From a virus (taxonomy: Duplodnaviria > Heunggongvirae > Uroviricota > Caudoviricetes), in the IMG/VR virus record IMGVR_UViG_3300031760_000012, positions 97,387-117,455 of that record: a DNA stretch of 20,069 nt. One strand, written 5' to 3'. The notes under the pieces are model-generated. The model saw only the letters and a list, made by a program, of their open reading frames with translations, did no database searches and was not told where the DNA came from. Positions 3,543 through 14,783 of the stretch are shown piece by piece; position 1 is the stretch's first letter, and each line of letters begins with the position of its first letter. A program made the position numbers and the translations under genes.

Positions 3543-3813
3543 ATCAATTAATACACTCATTATGAATCGTACGCCATTTGGTCCCAGCTGCACTCCGAAT
3601 CTGCCGGCTTCGAGATGACTCGACAGTCGAGGACTACCGAGCTGCTGCAACGGTTTCTGCACCCTGACCTCGAATTCCAAGCGGGATTGCTTCCCGATGA
3701 CCAGCCTTAAGCGCGCATCCAGGTGCCTCCGGCAGCCGTTCCCCTTCTGGCTTCTTAAAACTTCGGCGAAGCGCCAAAGCAGTGCAAACGCACACTAATC
3801 TATATTAATTGAT
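3543..3813 (-). ncRNA. Retron-like ncRNA cassette C (predicted)
   Basis: 13-bp terminal stem (11-bp perfect IR at 3543-3553/3803-3813 plus U-G and A-U), unpaired G at 3800, conserved core at 3759-3800. Confidence 0.7.
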
Positions 3814-4053
3814 CAGTTCCAAAACCTCATCAAAATCAATCGGTTCGACTCCGCCAACAAGAGAAAGTTCCTCTTCTAAAAAGTAATCTCCGTCCTCACA
3901 TATATCCAAGTAGTAGCGATCCCCTTCGGAACCAGGTCCAGTTTTTATAATCGATCCAATCTTGCCTTCGTACATATCTGGATACGCGTCCGGAACGTCG
4001 TCACGATTTCCGTCGAAATGAACTTTCACAACATCTCCTATTTTGTACTTCAT
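3805..4053 (-). CDS. Small SH3/KOW-like protein
   Basis: MKYKIGDVV N-terminus, tail PIDFDEVLELIN; paralog of 4050..4304. Confidence 0.75.
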   Translation of the reverse strand: MKYKIGDVVKVHFDGNRDDVPDAYPDMYEGKIGSIIKTGPGSEGDRYYLDICEDGDYFLEEELSLVGGVEPIDFDEVLELIN

Positions 4054-4304
4054 ATAATCCTCCTGTCGATCAGATCGAGAACCTCATCAAAGTCAATCGG
4101 ATCTACTTCGTTAAAAGGGAGAAGTTCATCTTCGAAGAAGTAGTCGTCTGGCTCGCTTATATCCAAGGTGTAAGTGGCATCTTCACCTGTGCCACAAACA
4201 TTAACAACCTCACCAACCCGATCTTGATACGCCTCAATATACCTGTCCGGTGTTATACCCCTTATGAGATGGCATATAACTATATCGCCAACCTTGTAAC
4301 TCAT
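4050..4304 (-). CDS. Small SH3/KOW-like protein
   Basis: MSYKVGDIV N-terminus, PIDFDEVLDLI; ATGA overlap with the RT stop. Confidence 0.75.
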   Translation of the reverse strand: MSYKVGDIVICHLIRGITPDRYIEAYQDRVGEVVNVCGTGEDATYTLDISEPDDYFFEDELLPFNEVDPIDFDEVLDLIDRRII

Positions 4305-5473
4305 ACGATCCTCCCTGCGATTGTATCTTTCAGCTCTTGCTCAATGTCAAAACCATACTTCTGGCGGCACTTCTCGAAGGCGCTCGTTATGAAGCTCGGC
4401 TCAACATTGCGGTAGTACGAAACCAGACCAAGCATGTAATGCATATCCCCGAGCTCCCATTCGTTGCGGTGATTCGCGAAATTGTGGCACATCGACCGGA
4501 ACGTGCGCTTCTTCTTTGAGCCGATCGTGATTTCGTTGTCCTTGTTCAGCATTAAGCCATGGATCCAGTTCCTACCTGCTCTTGAGCCGTAGTGCGTCTT
4601 TTCTTGCTTCAATTCATATGGAGCCCCGAACTCGTCCAAAACCCCTCTCATATATGCGAGAACATCCTGAAACATGAACGAACCTTTACAGCTGATATTC
4701 ATATCGTCAGCGTATCGAGTGTACACGAAATGATTTCCATCAAAGAGATCTCCGTTATTGTTCCGGAAATCTCTGGCGAAGCGGAAGTCGATCGGGATCA
4801 TGATGACGTTTGTCAGGAATGGACTGATCGGTGTTCCCTGTGGCAGACCGCCATTTAAGAAGCACAAATCCAACGCTCGCTCGAGCTGCTCCCGTCCGGT
4901 CGGCAAGTTCATCACCTCGCTGAACGGGAATATATCCGACAACATCCGTGTCACAAATTCCTGATCTGTGCTCCCGAAGAAGTTACTGAAATCCGTCTTC
5001 AAAAACCACCATGATGCGTTGCGCTGGTGGCGCTTCACAGCATCGAGTGCTGAGCGCTTCTTGATGTACGCAAACGCTGATGTGTGATATAGCGGATTGT
5101 ACACAGTTTCGAAGATAAACTTCAGCTGACGCAGTGCTTCTTTCAGTTCGTCGCACGGTTCGTCGATCGTCCGGAAACCTCCAGACGCTTTCGGGATTCG
5201 GAACTCCGTATACATACTCTGGCGGTCACGCTCGAACAGATCCGCATGGCGCTGATTCCACTCCCTCAGTGAGCTGACCATCCGGTCGAGCCCTAAGTCA
5301 CGGTAGTACTTAAACGGAACTCGGTATGGGTAATACCAAGTTCTTGTGAATGTGTCATTCTGTGCGTACTGCCGAGATCTCAGAACAGCTTCGAGATCAA
5401 CCGTGTTATTCAGAATATCATCTACGTGTATTTGACGGACTTTTGCCGCCAAAGGAGTAACAATGTATGGCAT
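4301..5473 (-). CDS. Retron-type reverse transcriptase (390 aa)
   Basis: FRIPKASGGFRTIDEP, SAFAYIKKRS...H, LKTDFSNFF, LPQGTPISPFLTN, YTRYADD, and IHGLMLN in place of the retron VTG motif; start MPYIV at 5473 after AAGGAGG. Confidence 0.9.
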   Translation of the reverse strand: MPYIVTPLAAKVRQIHVDDILNNTVDLEAVLRSRQYAQNDTFTRTWYYPYRVPFKYYRDLGLDRMVSSLREWNQRHADLFERDRQSMYTEFRIPKASGGFRTIDEPCDELKEALRQLKFIFETVYNPLYHTSAFAYIKKRSALDAVKRHQRNASWWFLKTDFSNFFGSTDQEFVTRMLSDIFPFSEVMNLPTGREQLERALDLCFLNGGLPQGTPISPFLTNVIMIPIDFRFARDFRNNNGDLFDGNHFVYTRYADDMNISCKGSFMFQDVLAYMRGVLDEFGAPYELKQEKTHYGSRAGRNWIHGLMLNKDNEITIGSKKKRTFRSMCHNFANHRNEWELGDMHYMLGLVSYYRNVEPSFITSAFEKCRQKYGFDIEQELKDTIAGRIV

Positions 5474-5485
5474 AGAAACCTCCTT

Positions 5486-5600
5486 CCTGCTCATGCACAT
5501 TACTGAACGGACCGATGTTAAGAAAGGAGACATGTCGTTTGGAGGTATTATGTATTCGTACACCAATCCGTTCGGTAATGAGCACGGGCATGTGCTCATC
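5486..5600 (-). ncRNA. Structured RNA in the RT leader (element D)
   Basis: 8-bp hairpin AUGAGCAC/GUGCUCAU plus a 21-bp stem (5560-5580 with 5498-5518; one mismatch, three G-U) directly before the RT RBS. Confidence 0.5.
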
Positions 5601-5871
5601 ATATTAAATCGTCGATTCCGTCGAAATTTGCGATAAACCCGTGATACGGGATCAGGTTCTCTGCCGACCATACGAAATCATCAATTGACGGGCAGTCACC
5701 ACTCATGGAATTCTTTGTCAGATAATACCCTTTGTAGTTAGAACGGTCTGTGACGATCCGCTTTATCGTAAAAACTCTGCCGCCAAAAGAATCGATCATG
5801 TATTCATTCGCCGGAATAATGATCTCGTTCTTTACGTACACAAGGTCACCTTCTATAAATTCATAATTCAT
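5599..5871 (-). CDS. Small SH3/KOW-like protein
   Basis: FIEGDLVYVK, tail NFDGIDDLI; paralog of 5868..6140. Confidence 0.75.
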   Translation of the reverse strand: MNYEFIEGDLVYVKNEIIIPANEYMIDSFGGRVFTIKRIVTDRSNYKGYYLTKNSMSGDCPSIDDFVWSAENLIPYHGFIANFDGIDDLI

Positions 5872-6140
5872 ATCAGATCATCAACTCCGTCGAAGTCCAT
5901 GTCGTTATATCCATACGGAATCAGGTTTTGTGCCGCCCAGATGTAACAACTAATCGGTGGACAATCCTGACTCATGGGCGTTCTCTCCAAGTGGTACCGA
6001 ACATCCCCGGCGCCGTTATGATATCGCTCTTGTATTTCGAAAACTCTCCCGCTGAAGGAATCGATCATATCTTGGTTTGCCGGGCCGATAACCTTGTTTT
6101 TAACGAGTACGAGATCTCCTTCATTGAATTCTGTCATCAT
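5868..6140 (-). CDS. Small SH3/KOW-like protein
   Basis: Start MMTEFNEGDLVLVK at 6140 after GAGGTGA; tail DFDGVDDLI. Confidence 0.75.
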   Translation of the reverse strand: MMTEFNEGDLVLVKNKVIGPANQDMIDSFSGRVFEIQERYHNGAGDVRYHLERTPMSQDCPPISCYIWAAQNLIPYGYNDMDFDGVDDLI

Positions 6141-6147
6141 AGTCACC

Positions 6148-6819
6148 TCAGAACGCGTTGATTGCGAAGTTGAAACCGTCAACGATGATGATCTTCTTGA
6201 GATCCTTTCCCCTGACAAAGTTCAGCCAGTTGTTGACTCCGATATCTGCGATCAGCCTTGGAATCGAACCAACCCCCAGTGTCGTACCACATGCACTCAC
6301 CGGTGTGGCAGCTGTTGCTTCCTCATGGGTGAAATCCATCGAGGCGAAGAAATTCTCAATGTCATCAGGAACCTGCCAGTCAGCGGCGAAGGTCTGCGCG
6401 TCCTCGAGCCTCGTCCGGAAGTCGAACATTGCTTTGATCCCTGTGTTGTACTGATTCTCCGTCACGATCTGGCGGCGGACGTCGATCGAGTCAGGTGCGA
6501 CGAAGACATACCCTGAAAGCTTCTGACCAGTCCAGCCATCATATACAAGCTTCAGATTCATATCCGGGTTGATGTCATTGAGGATCTCCGCCAGAGCATC
6601 GATCTTATATTCTCCGATATCCTTCTGACGAAAAACCTGATTCGCTATGTTATGAGACTCGACTCGGTCGAAGTCGTACAGAACCATTTTCGTAACACCC
6701 AGACGGGCGAGGTTGACCGCAATGTTCCCGCCAACAGAACCACACCCGATGATGTGGCACCGACTCGAACCTAAGTCGGACGGGCTGAAGTACTCTAATG
6801 ATTTTTTCAGATCGATCAT
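6148..6819 (-). CDS. ThiF/MoeB/E1-family adenylyltransferase (Ubl-activating)
   Basis: IIGCGSVGG nucleotide-binding loop, LYDFDRVESHNIANQ, candidate catalytic Cys in PVSACG. Confidence 0.9.
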   Translation of the reverse strand: MIDLKKSLEYFSPSDLGSSRCHIIGCGSVGGNIAVNLARLGVTKMVLYDFDRVESHNIANQVFRQKDIGEYKIDALAEILNDINPDMNLKLVYDGWTGQKLSGYVFVAPDSIDVRRQIVTENQYNTGIKAMFDFRTRLEDAQTFAADWQVPDDIENFFASMDFTHEEATAATPVSACGTTLGVGSIPRLIADIGVNNWLNFVRGKDLKKIIIVDGFNFAINAF

Positions 6820-7172
6820 AATTCGCTCCTTTCGTTTGCCGCCAGAAGAGAATCAATGTCTTCTGACATGTTTTCGTTAAGTAAAACCCACGTCGGAACC
6901 GGGTCGCCATCGAACATAGGTTCAGTCCGCTCGAACATGATATCCTCCCATGCATATCTTCCACCATCGATGTCGAGGCGGTATATGTCAGATTCGCGGG
7001 AATGATATCTCGAGCTCGCATGAATTATCGTCGCGATGCTTCCACCGTACCGGTGCATACCAGGTACAACATTCGCTGTGTATGCTTCATCTGCTTTTTC
7101 GGTCCAGTCGTAATACTCATTAAGCAAAAACTCTGGGAGTATGGTAACCGTATCTCCTACGTTATATTTCAT
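6816..7172 (-). CDS. SH3/KOW-like protein
   Basis: MKYNVGDTVTI ... YRLDIDGGRYAWEDIMF. Confidence 0.7.
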   Translation of the reverse strand: MKYNVGDTVTILPEFLLNEYYDWTEKADEAYTANVVPGMHRYGGSIATIIHASSRYHSRESDIYRLDIDGGRYAWEDIMFERTEPMFDGDPVPTWVLLNENMSEDIDSLLAANERSEL

Positions 7173-7426
7173 TAGATCAACTCCTCCACCCCACTGAAAT
7201 CAATCGCCGTCGTTGTCTCTGCGAAACACCATTCGTCCCATGTCCAGGTATCACCCTCAAGGTAGTACCTATCGTAACCCGTTCCGTGATGGGCACTCTT
7301 TATCACATGTACCTCTCCTTCCATATCGATCATGTCCTGATTGATCCATAGGTTGTTTGGCGTTCTCTGATTTTCTCCCAGATACTTCATCGTGATTGTG
7401 ACCTTGTCACCTTTTTTGTATCTCAT
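7172..7426 (-). CDS. Small SH3/KOW-like protein
   Basis: MRYKKGDKVTI ... YYLEGDTWTWDEWCF, tail IDFSGVEELI. Confidence 0.75.
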   Translation of the reverse strand: MRYKKGDKVTITMKYLGENQRTPNNLWINQDMIDMEGEVHVIKSAHHGTGYDRYYLEGDTWTWDEWCFAETTTAIDFSGVEELI

Positions 7427-7989
7427 ATCAATTCCTCAACTCCTTCAAACCCTAGCACCGTCGCGACCATGAGAACCCCGTTGACGATTTCGTATGGGTC
7501 GTCCGCCAGATAGAGATCATCAGTGATCATGTCTGTGCCGTTTATGGATTTAACAATGCCTTTCAGATCAGTTAGATCAATTTCTTTTCCTATTACCATC
7601 CACTCATGGACCGATGAAGGAAGCAGGTAAAACCCGTCAGGGAACACCTCACTCATTTTTCTTTTGGCGGCATCGCTCAGAACAACCCCGGCTCCGTAGA
7701 TTCCATGATTCGTCGTAAGTATATACATCTCAGCATCACTAGACTGTGGCATTCCGATACGCGATAACATACTCATGAGCACAACCTCGTCTTCAGGAAG
7801 GTTCTGTGCACGGTCGAGCAGGTCGAAGATCACGAAGTCATCTTCTGACACTGGAAGAGTCAGTCCGTCGACGTACCTGTAAAACCCGAGCAGGAAGTCA
7901 GAGTATCTTGTGTAGATAAATCCGTTCTGCATTAACCACTTTTCTTTCTCTGGCGGCAACAGCATCGGATAAACTTCTTCTATACGCAT
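7423..7989 (-). CDS. DUF5688-family protein
   Basis: YILTTNHGIYGAGVVL and FYLLPSSVHEWMVI motifs. Confidence 0.75.
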   Translation of the reverse strand: MRIEEVYPMLLPPEKEKWLMQNGFIYTRYSDFLLGFYRYVDGLTLPVSEDDFVIFDLLDRAQNLPEDEVVLMSMLSRIGMPQSSDAEMYILTTNHGIYGAGVVLSDAAKRKMSEVFPDGFYLLPSSVHEWMVIGKEIDLTDLKGIVKSINGTDMITDDLYLADDPYEIVNGVLMVATVLGFEGVEELI

Positions 7990-8002
7990 ATAAACACCTC
8001 AT

Positions 8003-8153
8003 TTCGGGTGGCACGTAGCGTAAGGTAATTGTTCCCCGTATATTCACATTCAACACGGCGACCCGCGGTCTCGGAGAGATTGCAATTACCTTGCTACAGC
8101 CGAATCCTGAATCAAGTTTTTCTTAACAGTTTCTTAAGCTTTGATTATCAAAG
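8003..8153 (-). other. Structured intergenic element E (long stem plus two small hairpins)
   Basis: IRs at 8022-8031/8083-8092, 8015-8019/8093-8097 and 8003-8007/8100-8104; hairpins CTTAA/TTAAG and CTTTGA/TCAAAG. Confidence 0.5.
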
Positions 8154-8156
8154 GAA

Positions 8157-8957
8157 TTATTTTCCAGAATAGAAGGACCTATTCCACTCCTCCCAGTCCA
8201 GATCACGCTCATACATGTCTAAACATCTCGTAGAGGTGTCCTGTTTCGCAGGCTTCTGGATCGACGTTGGCGTTTTCATCGCGGTCGTTTTGTAAACCTT
8301 TCTCACCGCCAGCTCCTTCGCCTTGCTGACGAATGAAACGATATCGTTGTCATCATCAAATATGTAATACTTGACATCATTGTTCTCGTAGACCACATTG
8401 TTCTCGATGTCGTACACGTCGAAGTGAATCTGACATCTTTTATTGAAGATGACAAATACATAGAACGGATTTTCTGAATCCGGTTTCAGCTGGGAAACGA
8501 TCTTCTCCTGATGATCCATATCCGTTCCTGACGGTGAAACCCCCATGTTGACATGAGAATGACCCTGACCTCGGATATTATTGAACTGCTCATCCGGAAT
8601 CGTCATGAGCCACTGTCCGTATGTGGCTTCGTCCATCTCGACATTCGTTCCGGTAACCTCCTGCGGATATACGATTACATCCGTCAAGATGAAAGCTAAT
8701 GGATCCTCTGGGTCGCGCTCGGCAAGGAAGTGCCATGCTACCTCGTTCGAAAACTCATCGACGAGTGTCCACATTTTGAGCCATGCGATCGGACGGAATA
8801 CAACCTTGCACTTCTCTTTTGGCGGCTGATCGATCTTCCCAAGATCCAGCGTCAAGTTGATCTTCGATGATTTAACCGCTCCGGCAGTCTGGAGCATCTG
8901 GATAATTTTCGATGTCTGTTCCTGAATCTCTTCGGGTGTAAGCCTCAGTTTTCTCAT
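8157..8957 (-). CDS. JAB/Mov34/MPN metallopeptidase (deubiquitinase-like)
   Basis: JAMM signature EVAWH ... GHSHVNMGVSPSGTD. Confidence 0.85.
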   Translation of the reverse strand: MRKLRLTPEEIQEQTSKIIQMLQTAGAVKSSKINLTLDLGKIDQPPKEKCKVVFRPIAWLKMWTLVDEFSNEVAWHFLAERDPEDPLAFILTDVIVYPQEVTGTNVEMDEATYGQWLMTIPDEQFNNIRGQGHSHVNMGVSPSGTDMDHQEKIVSQLKPDSENPFYVFVIFNKRCQIHFDVYDIENNVVYENNDVKYYIFDDDNDIVSFVSKAKELAVRKVYKTTAMKTPTSIQKPAKQDTSTRCLDMYERDLDWEEWNRSFYSGK

Positions 8958-10312
8958 TTCTCCTCCTTGATTCTTCTGATTGCTTCTGCGACAGTGATTT
9001 CTTCACCGCCAGGAGCGATGATTATTTTGTCTGCCGTTATGAAAAGCTCATTGAAGAACGCCTCATTCGACGCTGCTTCAGAGACATTGATATTCGCGAC
9101 AGACGCGATGATCGCATTGACGACTCCGATATCGTTGCCGGAATCGAAAGCCTGACGGATCATCTCTCCGTTGTTTCCTAAGCATGCGTGGAGCTGCATG
9201 TGCTTGTTCGGCATATAGCCGCCCTTCTGATTGAAACCTCGGATCGACTGCGCATACCGCTGGATGAGGTTCAGCGAGAATTCTGCGTACATCTTGATGA
9301 CGTATGTCTCCTCAACGAAGATCTCCTTCAGAAGAGCCATTGCATCTTCCGTTGAATAACTTCCAGTGCGTGAGTAGATGTATGCGTCAGGATTCGTCAC
9401 GACATTCTCTGCGTCGTCGCGGTCAAAGTTCGACAGCGTTGTCGCAACCCCGATGCGAAGCTCTCCATCGTTCGAAACTGACTTGACATCGATTGATTCC
9501 GTATCGATCAAGAACTGCGTGAGATCCTCTACGTCCTCGCCGACAACAGACAAACCATTGAAACGGATTGATCTCTCCATGATCTCCTTGCGGTTTTCAC
9601 GGATGCGATTGTAATGAGATTCGATTTGTTCTTCGAGATAGTTGATCTCTCCTTTCAACGATTCGCGCATCGTATTGATATAGCGTTCGCGATAACCGTC
9701 CAGAGCCATGTGGATCATGGCGGATCTCAGGTCGAAGCGCTTCTCCGTGAGTTCATTGCACATGCGCTTAAACTCTTCTCCGTCAGACGCGATCATGGTC
9801 TTGACGAAGGAGGTTTCCTCTTCTGTCAAAGGCTTATCTTTGAAGTACCACGGGAGTAACCTCGATACGAAAACCCCCATGGTGTGAAACGAGATTATAT
9901 TAAGTCCCTCGACCAGTACAATCGACTGGCGCCTGGATTCATTTATTACGATGTGGGCGTTGATACGCCTATCGCTTAAGAAGGTTTCGATGTCGCGCAA
10001 ATGTTCGTAGCCTTCTGGATATTCTTTTTCGGGTAAGGTTCCAACCTTATAAAACCTTAATGCGTTTTCAGGTGTTCCTTCGATGAACGTATGAAAATCT
10101 TCGAAGTCACGTTCATTAAGCTCGGCGGACAACAAGTCCATCCATGGCTTTGGTGTGCCTTCTGGAATTCTAGGCTGAAGCAAAACCGTCAGCTCAGCCG
10201 TAATGGACAGGTCGAGTCCGTCGACCATGTTCATTGAATCGATATAGTTCTGAAACCCAGGATACGGGCTGATTATCCTTAAATCCTGGGGTTGAATGTG
10301 TTCTGCAAACAT
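8954..10312 (-). CDS. Putative E2-like conjugating protein with central coiled coil (452 aa)
   Basis: C-terminal PNKHMQLHACLG resembles the H...CLG active-site region of prokaryotic E2 families; lies between the Ubl and JAB genes; start MFAEH after AGGAGGAG. Confidence 0.5.
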   Translation of the reverse strand: MFAEHIQPQDLRIISPYPGFQNYIDSMNMVDGLDLSITAELTVLLQPRIPEGTPKPWMDLLSAELNERDFEDFHTFIEGTPENALRFYKVGTLPEKEYPEGYEHLRDIETFLSDRRINAHIVINESRRQSIVLVEGLNIISFHTMGVFVSRLLPWYFKDKPLTEEETSFVKTMIASDGEEFKRMCNELTEKRFDLRSAMIHMALDGYRERYINTMRESLKGEINYLEEQIESHYNRIRENRKEIMERSIRFNGLSVVGEDVEDLTQFLIDTESIDVKSVSNDGELRIGVATTLSNFDRDDAENVVTNPDAYIYSRTGSYSTEDAMALLKEIFVEETYVIKMYAEFSLNLIQRYAQSIRGFNQKGGYMPNKHMQLHACLGNNGEMIRQAFDSGNDIGVVNAIIASVANINVSEAASNEAFFNELFITADKIIIAPGGEEITVAEAIRRIKEEK

Positions 10313-10335
10313 GTCTCCTCCTGTTGGCGGCAATT

Positions 10336-10375
10336 AAAAAACGGCTCCCATGTGAACCGCCACACATGAGAGCCG
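10336..10375 (-). terminator. Intrinsic terminator after the Ubl gene
   Basis: 13-bp stem (one G-U on the minus strand) followed by U6. Confidence 0.75.
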
Positions 10376-10452
10376 AACGGATAAGTGTTGCAAACTATGG
10401 ATTCTTACGTGCAATTTTATTTCATGTATCACCCCCTCCGCCAGAAGAAGAA

Positions 10453-10689
10453 TTATCTGGTTGCGTTGTCAGTCTTTGCCATGCCGAACAGACTGGCTGA
10501 TGTATCGACACCAAGCTCAGCAAACGTGCGATCGATATCTCCGGCGCGAACAGCAACGCCGTTGAGAAGCACCGTGATACCATCAACAGGGAAACCATTT
10601 GCTTCGAACGCTTCGCGGAGTGTTGTGGTGTTTTCATCGAGGACTGTCTTAACTTTGTTTGTGTTGTTCATAATTGTTGCGCTGATCAT
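10453..10689 (-). CDS. Ubiquitin-like (beta-grasp) protein
   Basis: 78 aa; TLREAFEANGF...VLLNGVAV..GDIDRTFAELGV pattern; adjacent to E2-like and JAB genes; ends KTDNATR. Confidence 0.7.
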   Translation of the reverse strand: MISATIMNNTNKVKTVLDENTTTLREAFEANGFPVDGITVLLNGVAVRAGDIDRTFAELGVDTSASLFGMAKTDNATR

Positions 10690-10793: not shown

Positions 10794-11177
10794 CTATGCG
10801 ATCTCGATTGCGTCCTTGATCGCATTAATTTCGGCTTCGACCTCGTCGAGTGCTCCGGCGATCCTGGCTTCGACTTTGTTCAGCTTGTTTATCGCAGTCC
10901 CGACCTCTTCGAGGACGAACTCCTCGGCGGTGGCGTATGCGTCGCCACCCAGAACCGTAACGCAAGCTTTTCCGTTGCCGAAAGTCTCATCGGCAAATCC
11001 GATCCCGAAGTCGGATACGGATCCGACACAGGAAGTTCCGACCTTGAAGATGACGTTGCCGTCATAGTCCTCGAGTACGAGTGCTTCAGGGCGATACTTC
11101 TGAAGCCTTACAAAGTCCTCGTAAGTGTAATTGGATACGATAGTTGCTGTTCTGCCTGAAACTTTGATATTTGCCAT
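10794..11177 (-). CDS. Hypothetical protein (127 aa, C-terminal coiled coil)
   Basis: Start MANIKV at 11177 after AAGGAG. Confidence 0.7.
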   Translation of the reverse strand: MANIKVSGRTATIVSNYTYEDFVRLQKYRPEALVLEDYDGNVIFKVGTSCVGSVSDFGIGFADETFGNGKACVTVLGGDAYATAEEFVLEEVGTAINKLNKVEARIAGALDEVEAEINAIKDAIEIA

Positions 11178-11817: not shown

Positions 11818-12221
11818 GCGATTAATTCCTCCACTCCTTCAAAACTCAAGGATCTTTCTTTCTCTGGCTGGAAAGCTTCGGCGTACTCGTCTGTATCTGA
11901 GTACTGATTGATGATGTCCGCCAGCGTATATTCATCAAGGGTTTCGAATTCATCCCATCCCTCATCATAACCTTTATATACGAACCCATCGTGATACCCG
12001 ACATTGTCGTACAGGAATTTGAGACATTCAGCCAAATTCTGCCAGCTATTCCAGCGCAGGTGATCTGCGATCTGCTCATCTACATATGACGAGAAGATCT
12101 CGGTATCGTAAATGTCGTAGTCGCTTCTGATGAGGTTTTTAAGACCTTCGAAATCGTCGTCTGTTTCGAGCGTGTAAATCTGCTGCTCCAACGAAAGCTC
12201 ATCGAATTCTTTTCTGGTCAT
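11814..12221 (-). CDS. Hypothetical protein, tandem paralog 1 of 3
   Basis: MTRKEFDELSLEQQ N-terminus, tail SFEGVEELIA; ATGA overlaps. Confidence 0.75.
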   Translation of the reverse strand: MTRKEFDELSLEQQIYTLETDDDFEGLKNLIRSDYDIYDTEIFSSYVDEQIADHLRWNSWQNLAECLKFLYDNVGYHDGFVYKGYDEGWDEFETLDEYTLADIINQYSDTDEYAEAFQPEKERSLSFEGVEELIA

Positions 12222-12610
12222 ATCAGCTCCTCCACTCCACTGAAGTTCATTTCTTCTTCGAATAACTCTTTGTAATAATCGTCATCGCTGAACTCATCGA
12301 GGATTATTGCGAGGCTGCCTTTGTTGAACGCTTTAAATTCACACCAGTCGCACTCGTGTTGAGTAGTAAACCTATATCTATATACAAGATAGGAATCTCT
12401 GATATTCGAGTCGAGCCTGTTCAGCGCACGCATTGTGTTAACCCAGCCGAATTCACGTATGTAAAAATCTATACCATCATAGACCTCATCATTCAATTCG
12501 CCTCGGTTTACTATGTGATAGTACTTATTTATTTCAACCCATAATTTCGACCTTTCCAGAAAATTTATCTGCTCGACAAATTGAAGCCGGTCGAACTCTG
12601 ATCTGGTCAT
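12218..12610 (-). CDS. Hypothetical protein, tandem paralog 2 of 3
   Basis: MTRSEFDRLQFVEQ N-terminus, tail NFSGVEELI. Confidence 0.75.
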   Translation of the reverse strand: MTRSEFDRLQFVEQINFLERSKLWVEINKYYHIVNRGELNDEVYDGIDFYIREFGWVNTMRALNRLDSNIRDSYLVYRYRFTTQHECDWCEFKAFNKGSLAIILDEFSDDDYYKELFEEEMNFSGVEELI

Positions 12611-13014
12611 GCGATCAACTCCTCTACGCCATCGAATGTGATGGCTTCTTCCTCTGGCGGCTCTGCTTCGAAAAAACTTTCGTAGTACTCATCGTCTGAG
12701 TACTCGTCGAGTATGTCGGACAACCCCTGTTGCGTTAGCGGGATCATATCGTCCCAGAACTCGTCACACATATTCCAATACACAAACCCGTCGTACCCGT
12801 TTGTGGCACGCACGATCCGATTAAGCGAGTTATATAAATCCGCAACACCGAATTCGCGTAACGTATAAATGACCCAGTCTTCGATTCGGTCAGGAATTTC
12901 GTCAGTATGTATGATCTCCCAATCGTCACACACTGAATAATCCCACAGATCTGACTCCAGGAACCTCCTGACCTGTTCATCAAACGGGAGCCGTTCGAAT
13001 TCTTCTCTTGTCAT
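12607..13014 (-). CDS. Hypothetical protein, tandem paralog 3 of 3
   Basis: MTREEFERLPFDEQ N-terminus, tail TFDGVEELIA. Confidence 0.75.
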   Translation of the reverse strand: MTREEFERLPFDEQVRRFLESDLWDYSVCDDWEIIHTDEIPDRIEDWVIYTLREFGVADLYNSLNRIVRATNGYDGFVYWNMCDEFWDDMIPLTQQGLSDILDEYSDDEYYESFFEAEPPEEEAITFDGVEELIA

Positions 13015-13847
13015 ATCTTGTCCATCACCTTTCTGGCGGCGTCGACGTAGGATAACCCTTCAATGTCGACGTCGATTTTCGACCCGTCCTGAAACCATAC
13101 GGTTACTATGGCATCTGACTGATCGAGGGTACACTCAACAACTCCGGTTTCCGTCTGGCGGAGAAGCCATCCGAGGTTGTCGATGAAAATCTCCCGGTCG
13201 TTCTCATGGTTGACCACGCGGGTCTCGTTCGCCTCAATCCGAAATCCTGCTCTTGCCCATTCGTGATCGATGTCCGAAAACCTCTTTAAAATCGTCGCGA
13301 TCTGACCCCGGGTCAAAACCGCCTGTGGATCAAATACGTTCTCAGCGGTTCCGGTCATTAAACCCTCGTATGACGACCATGCAACGGCGTCCCGGGCGTA
13401 CTCGGAAATCGATTCGCGATCTGAATACCCAAGAAGTTCCTCTTCCGGCGAGCTGGCTTTGTACCCAGACGCCAGATTGAATCGGTACATGATCGTGGCA
13501 AATTGCTCACGTGTGATGGAACTTTCCGGATCGAAGTGGTTTCGATCAATGCCTTTCATTATTCCGGTACCTGACGCGTAGTTCACAGCCGGATTGTTCC
13601 GGACGTCGCGGAAACTCATGCCGGAGACGATCGGCGTATCGTCGTATCGCCAGATCGCGTCTGCGATTTCGACACGGGAAACCTCGCGGTATGGGTGGAA
13701 TAAACCTCCCGCGTCCATATCCATGATGTTGTTCTCGACGACCGCGAACTCAAACCCCGGTCGCCACCATTCTGTAGCTGCTGACGGAACCGCCAGAGAG
13801 AAAAGAAGGGCGGCTCCGAGTGCCGCCGTGATTACTAACCTTTTCAT
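13011..13847 (-). CDS. Secreted S-layer homology (SLH) domain protein with C-terminal phage domain
   Basis: Signal peptide MKRLVITAALGAALLFSLAVPSAA; three SLH repeats (VSRVEIA, FDPESSITREQFATIMYR, FDPQAVLTRGQIATILKR); RBS GGAGG. Confidence 0.85.
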   Translation of the reverse strand: MKRLVITAALGAALLFSLAVPSAATEWWRPGFEFAVVENNIMDMDAGGLFHPYREVSRVEIADAIWRYDDTPIVSGMSFRDVRNNPAVNYASGTGIMKGIDRNHFDPESSITREQFATIMYRFNLASGYKASSPEEELLGYSDRESISEYARDAVAWSSYEGLMTGTAENVFDPQAVLTRGQIATILKRFSDIDHEWARAGFRIEANETRVVNHENDREIFIDNLGWLLRQTETGVVECTLDQSDAIVTVWFQDGSKIDVDIEGLSYVDAARKVMDKI

Positions 13848-13857
13848 AAAACCCTCC

Positions 13858-14160
13858 TTAGTCAAACGTCGCCCAGATGTAATCCATCGTCGGCGACTCA
13901 AAGCACACGGATAAAACTGCCTTGTTCGGATGATACTCTTCTCCTTCTGGCAGCTCGATGTGCTGGAACTGCTCAAGGAAAACCTCCTGAATGTAATCCC
14001 TGTCGCGACCCGTTAATGCTTGGTCGCAATAGAAATACTCAGTGTGGACCTTGAACTCATCTTCGTACAGATCCACCTGATATACGTAGACAGCAGGAAG
14101 CTTCGATCTCAAAACCATGTTCCCTTTATGCGGGAAAACTTTATAATCTGGATATTTCAT
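13858..14160 (-). CDS. Hypothetical protein
   Basis: 100 aa ORF preceded by GAGGT. Confidence 0.65.
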   Translation of the reverse strand: MKYPDYKVFPHKGNMVLRSKLPAVYVYQVDLYEDEFKVHTEYFYCDQALTGRDRDYIQEVFLEQFQHIELPEGEEYHPNKAVLSVCFESPTMDYIWATFD

Positions 14161-14169
14161 CGTATTACC

Positions 14170-14520
14170 TCACGCGTTATCGATCTTGTTCATGAAATAT
14201 AGTGCTATCCTTTCGTCGGAACCAATAAGCTCTGATAAAGGTCTATCGTAATCGCTTTCAAGAACCATTCCGCCATTGAGTAAACAGCAATCCGCCTCAA
14301 TTCCTAAATGTTCGGCGATGAAAGAAATACTTCTCTCTTTGCTTACTTTTATACTCTCAAATAAAGAGCATGTGAGAACTCGCGCAACGCATCCGGTATC
14401 ATCAATGACAACAACTACGTCGATACTATGATCACGGATATCTTCTCTCTGGCGGGACTTCTCAGGACTCAGCAGAAACGCTATAAAACCCGCCATCGCT
14501 ATGTGTTTCAAAAGCTTCAT
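14170..14520 (-). CDS. Second ubiquitin-like protein with hydrophobic N-terminus
   Basis: LLNGGMVLESDYDRPLSEL...LYFMNKIDNA aligns with LLNGVAVRAGDIDRTFAEL...LFGMAKTDNA of 10453..10689; start MKLLKH at 14520. Confidence 0.55.
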   Translation of the reverse strand: MKLLKHIAMAGFIAFLLSPEKSRQREDIRDHSIDVVVVIDDTGCVARVLTCSLFESIKVSKERSISFIAEHLGIEADCCLLNGGMVLESDYDRPLSELIGSDERIALYFMNKIDNA

Positions 14521-14570
14521 AGCATCACCCCCACGTCGGCTGAGCTTCGATGATGCTCTGCCATGATTCG

Positions 14571-14783
14571 TCATGCACTTTCTGTCTTGTGCGAATTGCG
14601 GCTTTGTGCTTTTTCTTCGAGTAGCGCTTTAAGCAGATCCGGATCATGAAGAATCCGAGAACAAACCCGATAATAATACCTGACATCACATGCCTCCATT
14701 ATTTCTCTAACGAAAACCCCCGCCAGAAAGAGAAGCGGGGGAATCGTAATCATTACAAAAACCAGCTCTTCGAAAGCCCTCAT
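14571..14783 (-). CDS. Small membrane protein
   Basis: Hydrophobic LVFVMITIPPLLFLAGVFV. Confidence 0.6.
   Translation of the reverse strand: MRAFEELVFVMITIPPLLFLAGVFVREIMEACDVRYYYRVCSRILHDPDLLKALLEEKAQSRNSHKTESA

Follow-up and report, generated by a model that had tools for sequence, protein, structure and literature searches.

The final 20 kb of the virus record IMGVR_UViG_3300031760_000012 (positions 97387-117455 of IMG/VR's 117,455-bp record, which CheckV rates as 100% complete; these 20,069 nucleotides are called the window below) contains a block of five minus-strand genes. It probably encodes a conjugation-type cascade for a ubiquitin-like protein (Ubl) that is run by the phage itself, with a 452-aa protein, p452, as E2-like carrier and a small protein, p147, as partner. 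An earlier note, made from the letters of the window alone, had proposed a near-complete Ubl conjugation module in a phage-like region, perhaps directed against defences of the host, and the four open reading frames (ORFs) on which it was based, those for the Ubl (10453-10689), a large protein with an HACLG motif (8954-10312), a JAMM peptidase of the JAB type (8157-8957) and a ThiF/E1-like protein (6148-6819), are all present on the minus strand. Nearly all of 80 related phage contigs were indeed found to carry the module as one block, and "near-complete" proved to be an understatement, as p147 (10794-11177) makes five members. The gene list of that note had included neither p147 nor three unrelated small genes that lie between JAB and ThiF. 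The cassette is best explained as belonging to the vertically inherited core of a large clade of phages of roughly 50-150 kb from gut metagenomes, and because it behaves as a core gene block and not as an accessory island, we infer that it serves the phage's own infection cycle.

Conservation and genomic setting of the cassette

We retrieved 80 IMG/VR loci with the JAB profile (contigs of 7-148 kb, mostly 50-148 kb), and nearly all of them kept the order p147-Ubl-p452-JAB-ThiF. Identity across these loci was only about 25% for p452 and about 50% for ThiF, and apart from the cassette and a reverse transcriptase (RT) no protein of the window recurred in more than two of the 80. Loci in which BLAST had missed the Ubl do carry one, and the Ubl profile matched 20 of 20 cassette-bearing phage genomes checked, each at least 90% complete. 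The fixed place of the block and its retention across such diverged relatives are the behaviour of core genes and not of a swappable defence island. Searched with blastn, the cassette had no match among plasmid and phage records, and the full cassette was found in no cultured phage, all cassette-bearing records that turned up being metagenomic. DNA nearly identical to that of the phage was present in metagenomes of the bovine gut from two studies, one of these possibly being the source sample. In the ORF map of the genome, co-oriented long genes occupy about 3-55 kb of the plus strand (including ORFs of 2720, 1824 and 2002 aa), which we take as the structural module from the map, without annotation, and a long minus-strand block contains the cassette and all other genes discussed here.

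Relatives of the JAB protein occurred on 42 contigs of metagenome-assembled genomes (MAGs), mostly of Clostridia (Oscillospiraceae, Acutalibacteraceae, Ruminococcus, Defluviitaleaceae). The contigs came from gut samples of humans, ruminants, horses, rabbits and other animals. The binning of these MAGs points to Clostridia as the hosts. Among cultured phages, Flavobacterium phage FpV4 (NC_041872.1, 63878-65810; locus L082) has a distant JAB relative, gp51 (423 aa; hhalign E 3.8e-5), directly upstream of a ThiF-like gp50 that shows 30% identity to ThiF and is annotated as "thiamine biosynthesis protein". Homologs of ThiF are also present in 227-kb Xanthomonas and Erwinia phages.

The modifier, its C-terminus and the partner p147

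The modifier precursor (10453-10689, minus strand; 78 aa) belongs to no known sequence family, and it is the fold that identifies it: its Atlas model (predicted local distance difference test, pLDDT, 0.76) aligned with clusters of ThiS, SUMO, UBX and bacterial Multi_ubiq proteins at TM-scores of 0.63-0.75, as expected of a beta-grasp protein. In a profile search of the PDB 12 of the 13 best matches were beta-grasp Ubls (E 0.18-1.6), none of them individually significant. The protein ends in KTDNA followed by TR, and the alignment of the family shows a C-terminus of the form V-V-K-A-D-N-A with zero to three variable residues behind it; free-standing genes that stop exactly at KADNA are the majority form. 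The family thus ends in Ala and not in Gly or Gly-Gly.

By BLAST, at least 64 of the 80 loci have a p147 homolog directly upstream of the Ubl. In the window the gene (minus strand) encodes about 127 aa from a conserved MANIKV start, with an ORF that could be extended to 11237, and its product had no match in the PDB or Pfam, a HMMER profile search of the PDB giving coiled-coil or chance matches only. The genes for p147 and Ubl are duplicated as a pair in two loci (L031 and L070), and p147 is fused behind the Ubl in three others (L003, L015 with its ORF at 3791-4432, and L016). Such fusions are widespread: 117 of the 120 longer Ubl-containing clusters listed, nearly all of them Ubl-p147 fusions of about 205 aa, have the junction K[AS]DNA|A, and the Ala behind the junction aligns with residue 2 of free p147. 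A conserved end, variable overhangs and fusions at the same point are, as far as alignments can tell, the signature of a processed C-terminus, for which the JAMM enzyme of the cassette would be the obvious processor.

A second, diverged Ubl-like protein may be encoded at 14170-14574 (minus strand; called at 134 aa). Its N-terminal segment is hydrophobic; the protein ends in KIDNA directly at the stop codon and matched the Ubl profile in hhalign (E 2.6e-4, probability 42%) over 60 columns that reach the C-terminus. HMMER did not recover it with the same profile.

The JAMM peptidase and the E1-like protein

The JAMM/MPN+ metallopeptidase (8157-8957, minus strand; 266 aa), the start of whose gene overlaps the p452 stop by 4 nt, had no Pfam match. 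It has the motif E...H-x-H-x7-S-x2-D, in which E72, H133-x-H135, S143 and D146 are invariant among 25 homologs, and its profile matched Rpn11 (E 0.007) with the motif residues aligned. The PADLOC model for the JAB protein of CBASS (cyclic-oligonucleotide-based anti-phage signalling systems), which is of the Cap3 type, matched it at 1.6e-4. More than 565 clusters of homologs were found.

The minimal E1-like adenylyltransferase of the ThiF/MoeB type (6148-6819, minus strand; 223 aa) is the sole ThiF protein encoded in the whole phage genome. It matched Pfam PF00899 over residues 15-118 with 79.2 bits (cut-off 28.1; 3.5e-22), and the next-best matches were ThiS adenylyltransferases, which are the best matches in NCBIfam, and E1 domains of the Cap2 type, the PADLOC E1-E2 model reaching 2e-18. 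The GCGSVG loop, K72, D110 and R115 are conserved among 58 homologs, and in the same set Cys177, in the motif ETPVSAC, is invariant; lying downstream of the adenylation core, this residue could carry an acyl group. No CxxC pairs were seen in the protein.

p452 as a probable E2

The earlier note had regarded the assignment of the large HACLG protein to the E2 enzymes as its weakest link, and a UBC fold as what should be looked for. p452 (8954-10312, minus strand) starts at 10312 in agreement with the family alignment, and a longer TTG-initiated ORF from 10333 is not conserved. Its HACLG motif comprises residues 375-379. An exhaustive HMMER search expanded the family to 1497 clusters at 50% identity, mostly of 450-500 aa. 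In an alignment of 149 homologs H371, C377 and G379 never vary, N369, H143 and N409 are nearly invariant, and the consensus around the cysteine is P-N-P-H-x5-C-L-G; N369 and H371 precede the invariant Cys by eight and six residues. A word-index search had yielded four relatives, and the resulting five-sequence alignment gave an AlphaFold model with a pLDDT of 37; with the 149-sequence alignment the pLDDT was 94.

In the latter model p452 consists of an N-terminal alpha/beta domain, a helix of 50 residues (207-256) and a C-terminal domain (about 255-432) that contains N369-x-H371-x5-C377-L-G. The elements of the C-terminal domain follow each other as helix, two strands, insert, two strands, N369-x-H371 loop, C377 and three helices, the cysteine motif lying after the strand 353-356 and before the helix 381-390, and in the model this order matches that of UBC domains. 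Compared as a whole with the PDB by Foldseek, the model had no match at E <= 0.001; among the Foldseek candidates that we re-examined, residues 255-432 aligned with E2 and RWD structures at modest Z values of 4-5. A VIA-wide search with the whole model was swamped by the 50-residue helix, and a search of BFVD returned uncharacterised phage proteins only. No signal in HMMER or Pfam ties p452 to E2s: its profile gave coiled-coil or chance matches in the PDB, a Pfam scan of 100 family members showed no common family, the Atlas search returned nothing and tblastn gave a single match, an unannotated phage record from human faeces.

The predicted complex of p452 with Ubl residues 1-76 had an ipSAE of 0.65 compared with 0.00 for the best of three controls; 58 of 80 solved complexes reach the mark used, as do 2 of 110 mismatched pairs. 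The prediction runs had at least 91% of their contacts in common, with a partner pLDDT of at least 86. In the modelled interface residues 5-12, 39-50 and the tail (66-74) of the Ubl face residues 263-273, 291-297, 335-338 and 379-409 of p452, the last of these being the helices directly after C377. The arrangement resembles what we take to be the closed E2~ubiquitin arrangement, and for this reason the success of the complex model may reflect a likeness to solved E2-ubiquitin complexes; it shows likeness, not binding. An invariant Cys behind conserved Asn and His residues and a controlled complex model with the Ubl thus strengthen the E2 call of the earlier note without deciding it, and p452 is, on the models, a probable E2.

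Two further comparisons concern the family as such. Variants of p452 of 574 aa (those of the L031 type) do not contain a fused Ubl. FpV4 gp52 and, from Xanthomonas phage PhiXhv-12, the 892-aa protein encoded ahead of ThiF were unrelated to p452 in hhalign, where a match of 16 columns around H..CLG was at chance level.

Expression layout and neighbours of the cassette

A terminator-like hairpin (10332-10375, minus strand) separates the Ubl from the gene for p452. It spans 10375-10342, with a 13-bp stem including eight G-C pairs, and is followed by TTTTTT. Among 61 distinct Ubl-p452 intergenic regions, 39 had a hairpin that abuts a T-run, where shuffled sequences gave 3.6, and the hairpin sequences are unrelated to each other. 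Such a layout suggests that p147 and the Ubl would be made in excess over the enzymes. In three loci tRNA genes (Leu-TAA or two Thr) are located exactly between the Ubl and the p452 gene (L009, 4434-4519; L010, 4462-4538; L024, 4469-4622); ARAGORN detected no tRNA in the window.

JAB and ThiF are adjacent in most relatives. Here they are separated by three small minus-strand genes (6816-7989, namely 7423-7989, 7172-7426 and 6816-7172), which had no counterpart at the same place in the 80 loci. The product of 7423-7989 has a DUF5688-like C-terminus (Pfam) and resembles one ORF, at another place, in just one of the 80 loci. The three genes therefore lie outside the conserved cassette. Between ThiF and the RT gene this phage has two further small genes, inserts that most relatives do not have. 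The retron-type RT itself (4301-5671, minus strand) is a frequent downstream neighbour, present behind ThiF in 71 of the 80 loci. It is a usual neighbour and not an obligatory part of the cassette, because two complete cassette-bearing genomes (G015, which has terminal repeats, and G023) contain no RT homolog at E <= 0.001.

Other genes of the phage

Five small paralogs of the window (5599-5871, 5868-6218, 7172-7426, 7423-7989 and 12218-12610) have in common a C-terminal tag of the form F-x-G-[VI]-[DE]-[DE]-L-I, and a subset of them also begin alike, with M-x-[YF]-x-x-G-D-x-V. Relatives encode similar small proteins with other tags (CKSLL in L073, 2575-3336; KNN[FY]Y in L070, 1673-2332), and the strict form of the tag, G[VI][DE][DE]L[IL], was absent from the 80 related loci. 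The window also encodes a second DUF5688-like protein (152-880), a RadC-like JAB protein (1746-2180) and a protein with two SLH domains (13011-13976). Elsewhere in the genome, genes for a restriction-alleviation protein resembling Lar and for a protein resembling DruA/Mom (80734-81150 and 81945-82514; L084) probably serve the phage in anti-restriction or DNA modification.

How the cascade might work

The conserved features of the cassette can be arranged into a tentative pathway. p147 and the Ubl would be produced from an upstream unit that ends at the terminator-like hairpin, and the enzymes by read-through or from a start of their own. Judging from conservation, the JAMM enzyme would trim the Ubl precursor behind Ala76, removing TR, and in relatives would separate the Ubl from p147 in the polyprotein by cutting at KADNA|A, in both cases exposing the carboxylate of Asp-Asn-Ala. 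By homology, the 223-aa ThiF-type E1 would adenylate this carboxylate and may carry the Ubl on Cys177, from where the Ubl could pass to Cys377 in the UBC-like C-terminal domain of p452, a step in line with the fold and the complex model. Target choice may fall to the N-terminal domain and the long helix of p452, as has been proposed for the E2s of Bil, and the Ubl would be attached to proteins of the phage or the host, from which the JAMM enzyme could also remove it. p147 would be an obligate partner and is a candidate target or adaptor.

Several observations weigh against such a cascade. Ubls as a rule end in Gly, and we know of no precedent for a free Ubl that ends in Ala. The E1 is one small domain, with no Cys domain set apart from it as in the E1s of Bil or of eukaryotes, and the position that aligns with the Arg of the "RQ" motif of MoeB reads Asn. 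p452 has N-x-H in place of H-P-N. In addition, the genome encodes a cysteine desulfurase, and two cassette-bearing records are classed as proviruses; both are taken up below. As to the first point, the CD-NTases that Cap2 conjugates in CBASS have either Gly or Ala as their last residue, and the thioester is still formed when Gly is mutated to Ala (PMC10097602), so that conjugation may still hold for a Ubl that ends in Ala.

Alternative explanations

The same chemistry might serve a Bil-like, prophage-borne system of anti-phage defence or superinfection exclusion that tags the proteins of competing phages. All characterised bacterial operons of Ubl, E2, JAB and E1 are defence systems (10.1101/2023.09.04.556158; PMC11601596), the two proviruses make a defence role possible, two of the MAG contigs with the cassette are 244 and 359 kb long, and the RT that is usually adjacent to it is of the retron type typical of defence loci. 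We nevertheless consider this explanation unlikely: the block has a constant position among co-oriented genes of the early region, it is kept across relatives that have almost nothing else in common locally and whose p452 proteins are only about 25% identical, and it was present in every one of the nearly complete records checked for the Ubl.

A sulfur-carrier function appears highly doubtful, although it is still weakly alive. In such a pathway ThiF would adenylate the Ubl, the desulfurase of the phage would convert it to a thiocarboxylate for a thio-cofactor or the modification of nucleic acid, JAB would expose or recycle the C-terminus and p452 would be the sulfur acceptor or transferase; CysO/Mec+ and QbsE/QbsD are sulfur-carrier systems in which a JAB protein exposes or recycles the C-terminus. 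The E1 is a minimal domain of the MoeB/ThiF type whose best NCBIfam matches are ThiS adenylyltransferases, the cassette is located in the early, replication-side region, and the related JAB-ThiF pair of phage FpV4 lies among genes for a primase, a uracil-DNA glycosylase and an exonuclease. The earlier note had seen no sulfur-transfer genes, which holds for the window but not for the genome, where a desulfurase of the NifS/IscS type is encoded 26 kb away (77528-78691, equal to L084 7529-8692; E 6e-132). This gene is, however, not co-conserved with the cassette (it occurs in 12 of 27 cassette-bearing records, and in 10 of the 19 that are at least 90% complete), and the genome shows no linked desulfurase or sulfurtransferase together with an acceptor. 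The desulfurase has another likely client in a radical-SAM protein (genome positions 68532-69089), and no rhodanese, PP-loop ATPase, MoaE or PAPS-reductase/DndC protein was found in the genome. Furthermore, the Ubl does not end in Gly-Gly, the UBC-like Cys domain and the modelled docking of the Ubl fit conjugation, and the widespread Ubl-p147 fusions would be left unexplained.

It is very unlikely that there is no cascade and that the Ubl is a cleavable N-terminal or chaperone domain of p147, processed by JAB in the manner of the tail-assembly pair of lambda while ThiF and p452 do something else, such as adenylating or modifying another substrate: Ubl-p147 fusions are very common, phage Ubl and JAB proteins without E1 or E2 are a known theme (PMC1779556) and the evidence for an E2 fold is modest, but JAB, E1 and p452 are retained alongside free-standing Ubls that end at KADNA, and the conserved small C-terminal residue, the invariant Cys177 and Cys377 and the specific Ubl-p452 model would have no explanation.

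Significance and comparison with known systems

In the literature that we searched, prokaryotic Ubl conjugation features exclusively in the defence of bacteria against phages (Bil, type II CBASS and probably Bub), whereas here it would be found inside phages. Bil, Bub and CBASS were described there as bacterial systems and a Ubl/JAB pair in the lambda tail, but we found no phage-borne E1-E2-JAB-Ubl cassette; a review of jumbo phages and the paper by Iyer et al. (2006) contain no account of an E1/E2 cassette in a phage, and neither ThiF nor JAB nor ubiquitin comes up in the ART preprint on RT arrays. p452, the Ubl, p147 and the JAB subfamily all lie outside Pfam, and the clade of animal-gut phages is very large and uncultured. 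If the cassette conjugates, phages could rewrite the proteomes of their hosts or their own with a private tag, E1/E2 chemistry would extend to a free Ubl that ends in Ala and to an E1 of one domain, and a compact system of five genes would be available for reconstitution in E. coli. The Ubl-p147 fusion is, in addition, a natural polyprotein with which the specificity of JAMM enzymes can be probed.

Two bacterial systems had been named by the earlier note as relatives, PRTRC and Bil. PRTRC is not supported, as the PRTRC_ThiF model (TIGR03736) scored 26.4 bits against a cut-off of 144.75 and general Pfam scans of the larger ORFs of the window revealed no match to the ParB family, a PRTRC partner. 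Bil is the closest in layout, although not a family match: BilA-D comprise the same four activities in the same order of Ubl, E2, JAB and E1 (PMC11601596), and neither system has an E3 gene. The E2 of Bil is thought to pick its targets itself, and some Bil Ubls have short C-terminal overhangs that need trimming (10.1101/2023.09.04.556158; PMC11601596). Bil, however, belongs to bacterial defence islands and the cassette to the core block of a phage. The Ubl of Bil is a double one with an invariant C-terminal Gly (10.1101/2023.09.04.556158), in contrast to the single beta-grasp domain ending in Ala, and its E1 has the architecture IAD-AAD-CYS (PMC11601596), where the cassette has a single ThiF-type domain of 223 aa. 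p452, with its 452 aa, differs from the Bil E2 by an extra N-terminal domain, the long helix and N-x-H for H-P-N, and p147 is an added partner.

The best matches of E1 and JAB in the defence library are to Cap2 (E2-E1) and Cap3 (JAB) of type II CBASS, in which a C-terminal Ala is likewise an accepted acyl donor (PMC10097602). The complete phage genome has no SMODS/CD-NTase match, and in the cassette the donor is a dedicated beta-grasp Ubl and the E1 and the E2-like protein are separate genes; p452, the Ubl and p147 matched no PADLOC model at the sequence level. In type I Bub (6E.1), the Ubl-E2 fusion BubAB is cleaved by the JAB domain of BubCD (PMC11601596), and in the Ubl-p147 fusions of relatives a junction would similarly require JAB cleavage to free the C-terminus of the Ubl. 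The fusion partner is here p147 and in Bub the E2, and Bub uses Ser oxyesters without a catalytic Cys (PMC11601596), unlike the cassette with its invariant Cys177 (E1) and Cys377 (p452).

Pairs of ThiS/MoaD and ThiF/MoeB, which are joined by JAB in CysO and QbsE, resemble the cassette in the minimal E1, the small beta-grasp carrier and the JAB protein. The cassette has, in contrast, an E2-like Cys protein, and lacks a Gly-Gly end, acceptor enzymes and a co-conserved desulfurase. The TAPI Ubl and the JAB-NlpC protein TAPK of lambda and T1 are also a phage-encoded Ubl and JAB, for which processing of a Ubl fusion by JAB has been proposed (PMC1779556), but they belong to the tail module and have neither E1 nor E2, whereas the cassette is located outside the structural module and has both. 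Taken as a whole, we tentatively suggest that the cassette is a complete phage Ubl cascade that acts as a core infection function, with an Asp-Asn-Ala modifier, a p147 polyprotein, a one-domain E1 and a giant, target-selecting E2-like protein; such a cascade would be the viral counterpart of Bil, CBASS and Bub, possibly their evolutionary source or mirror.

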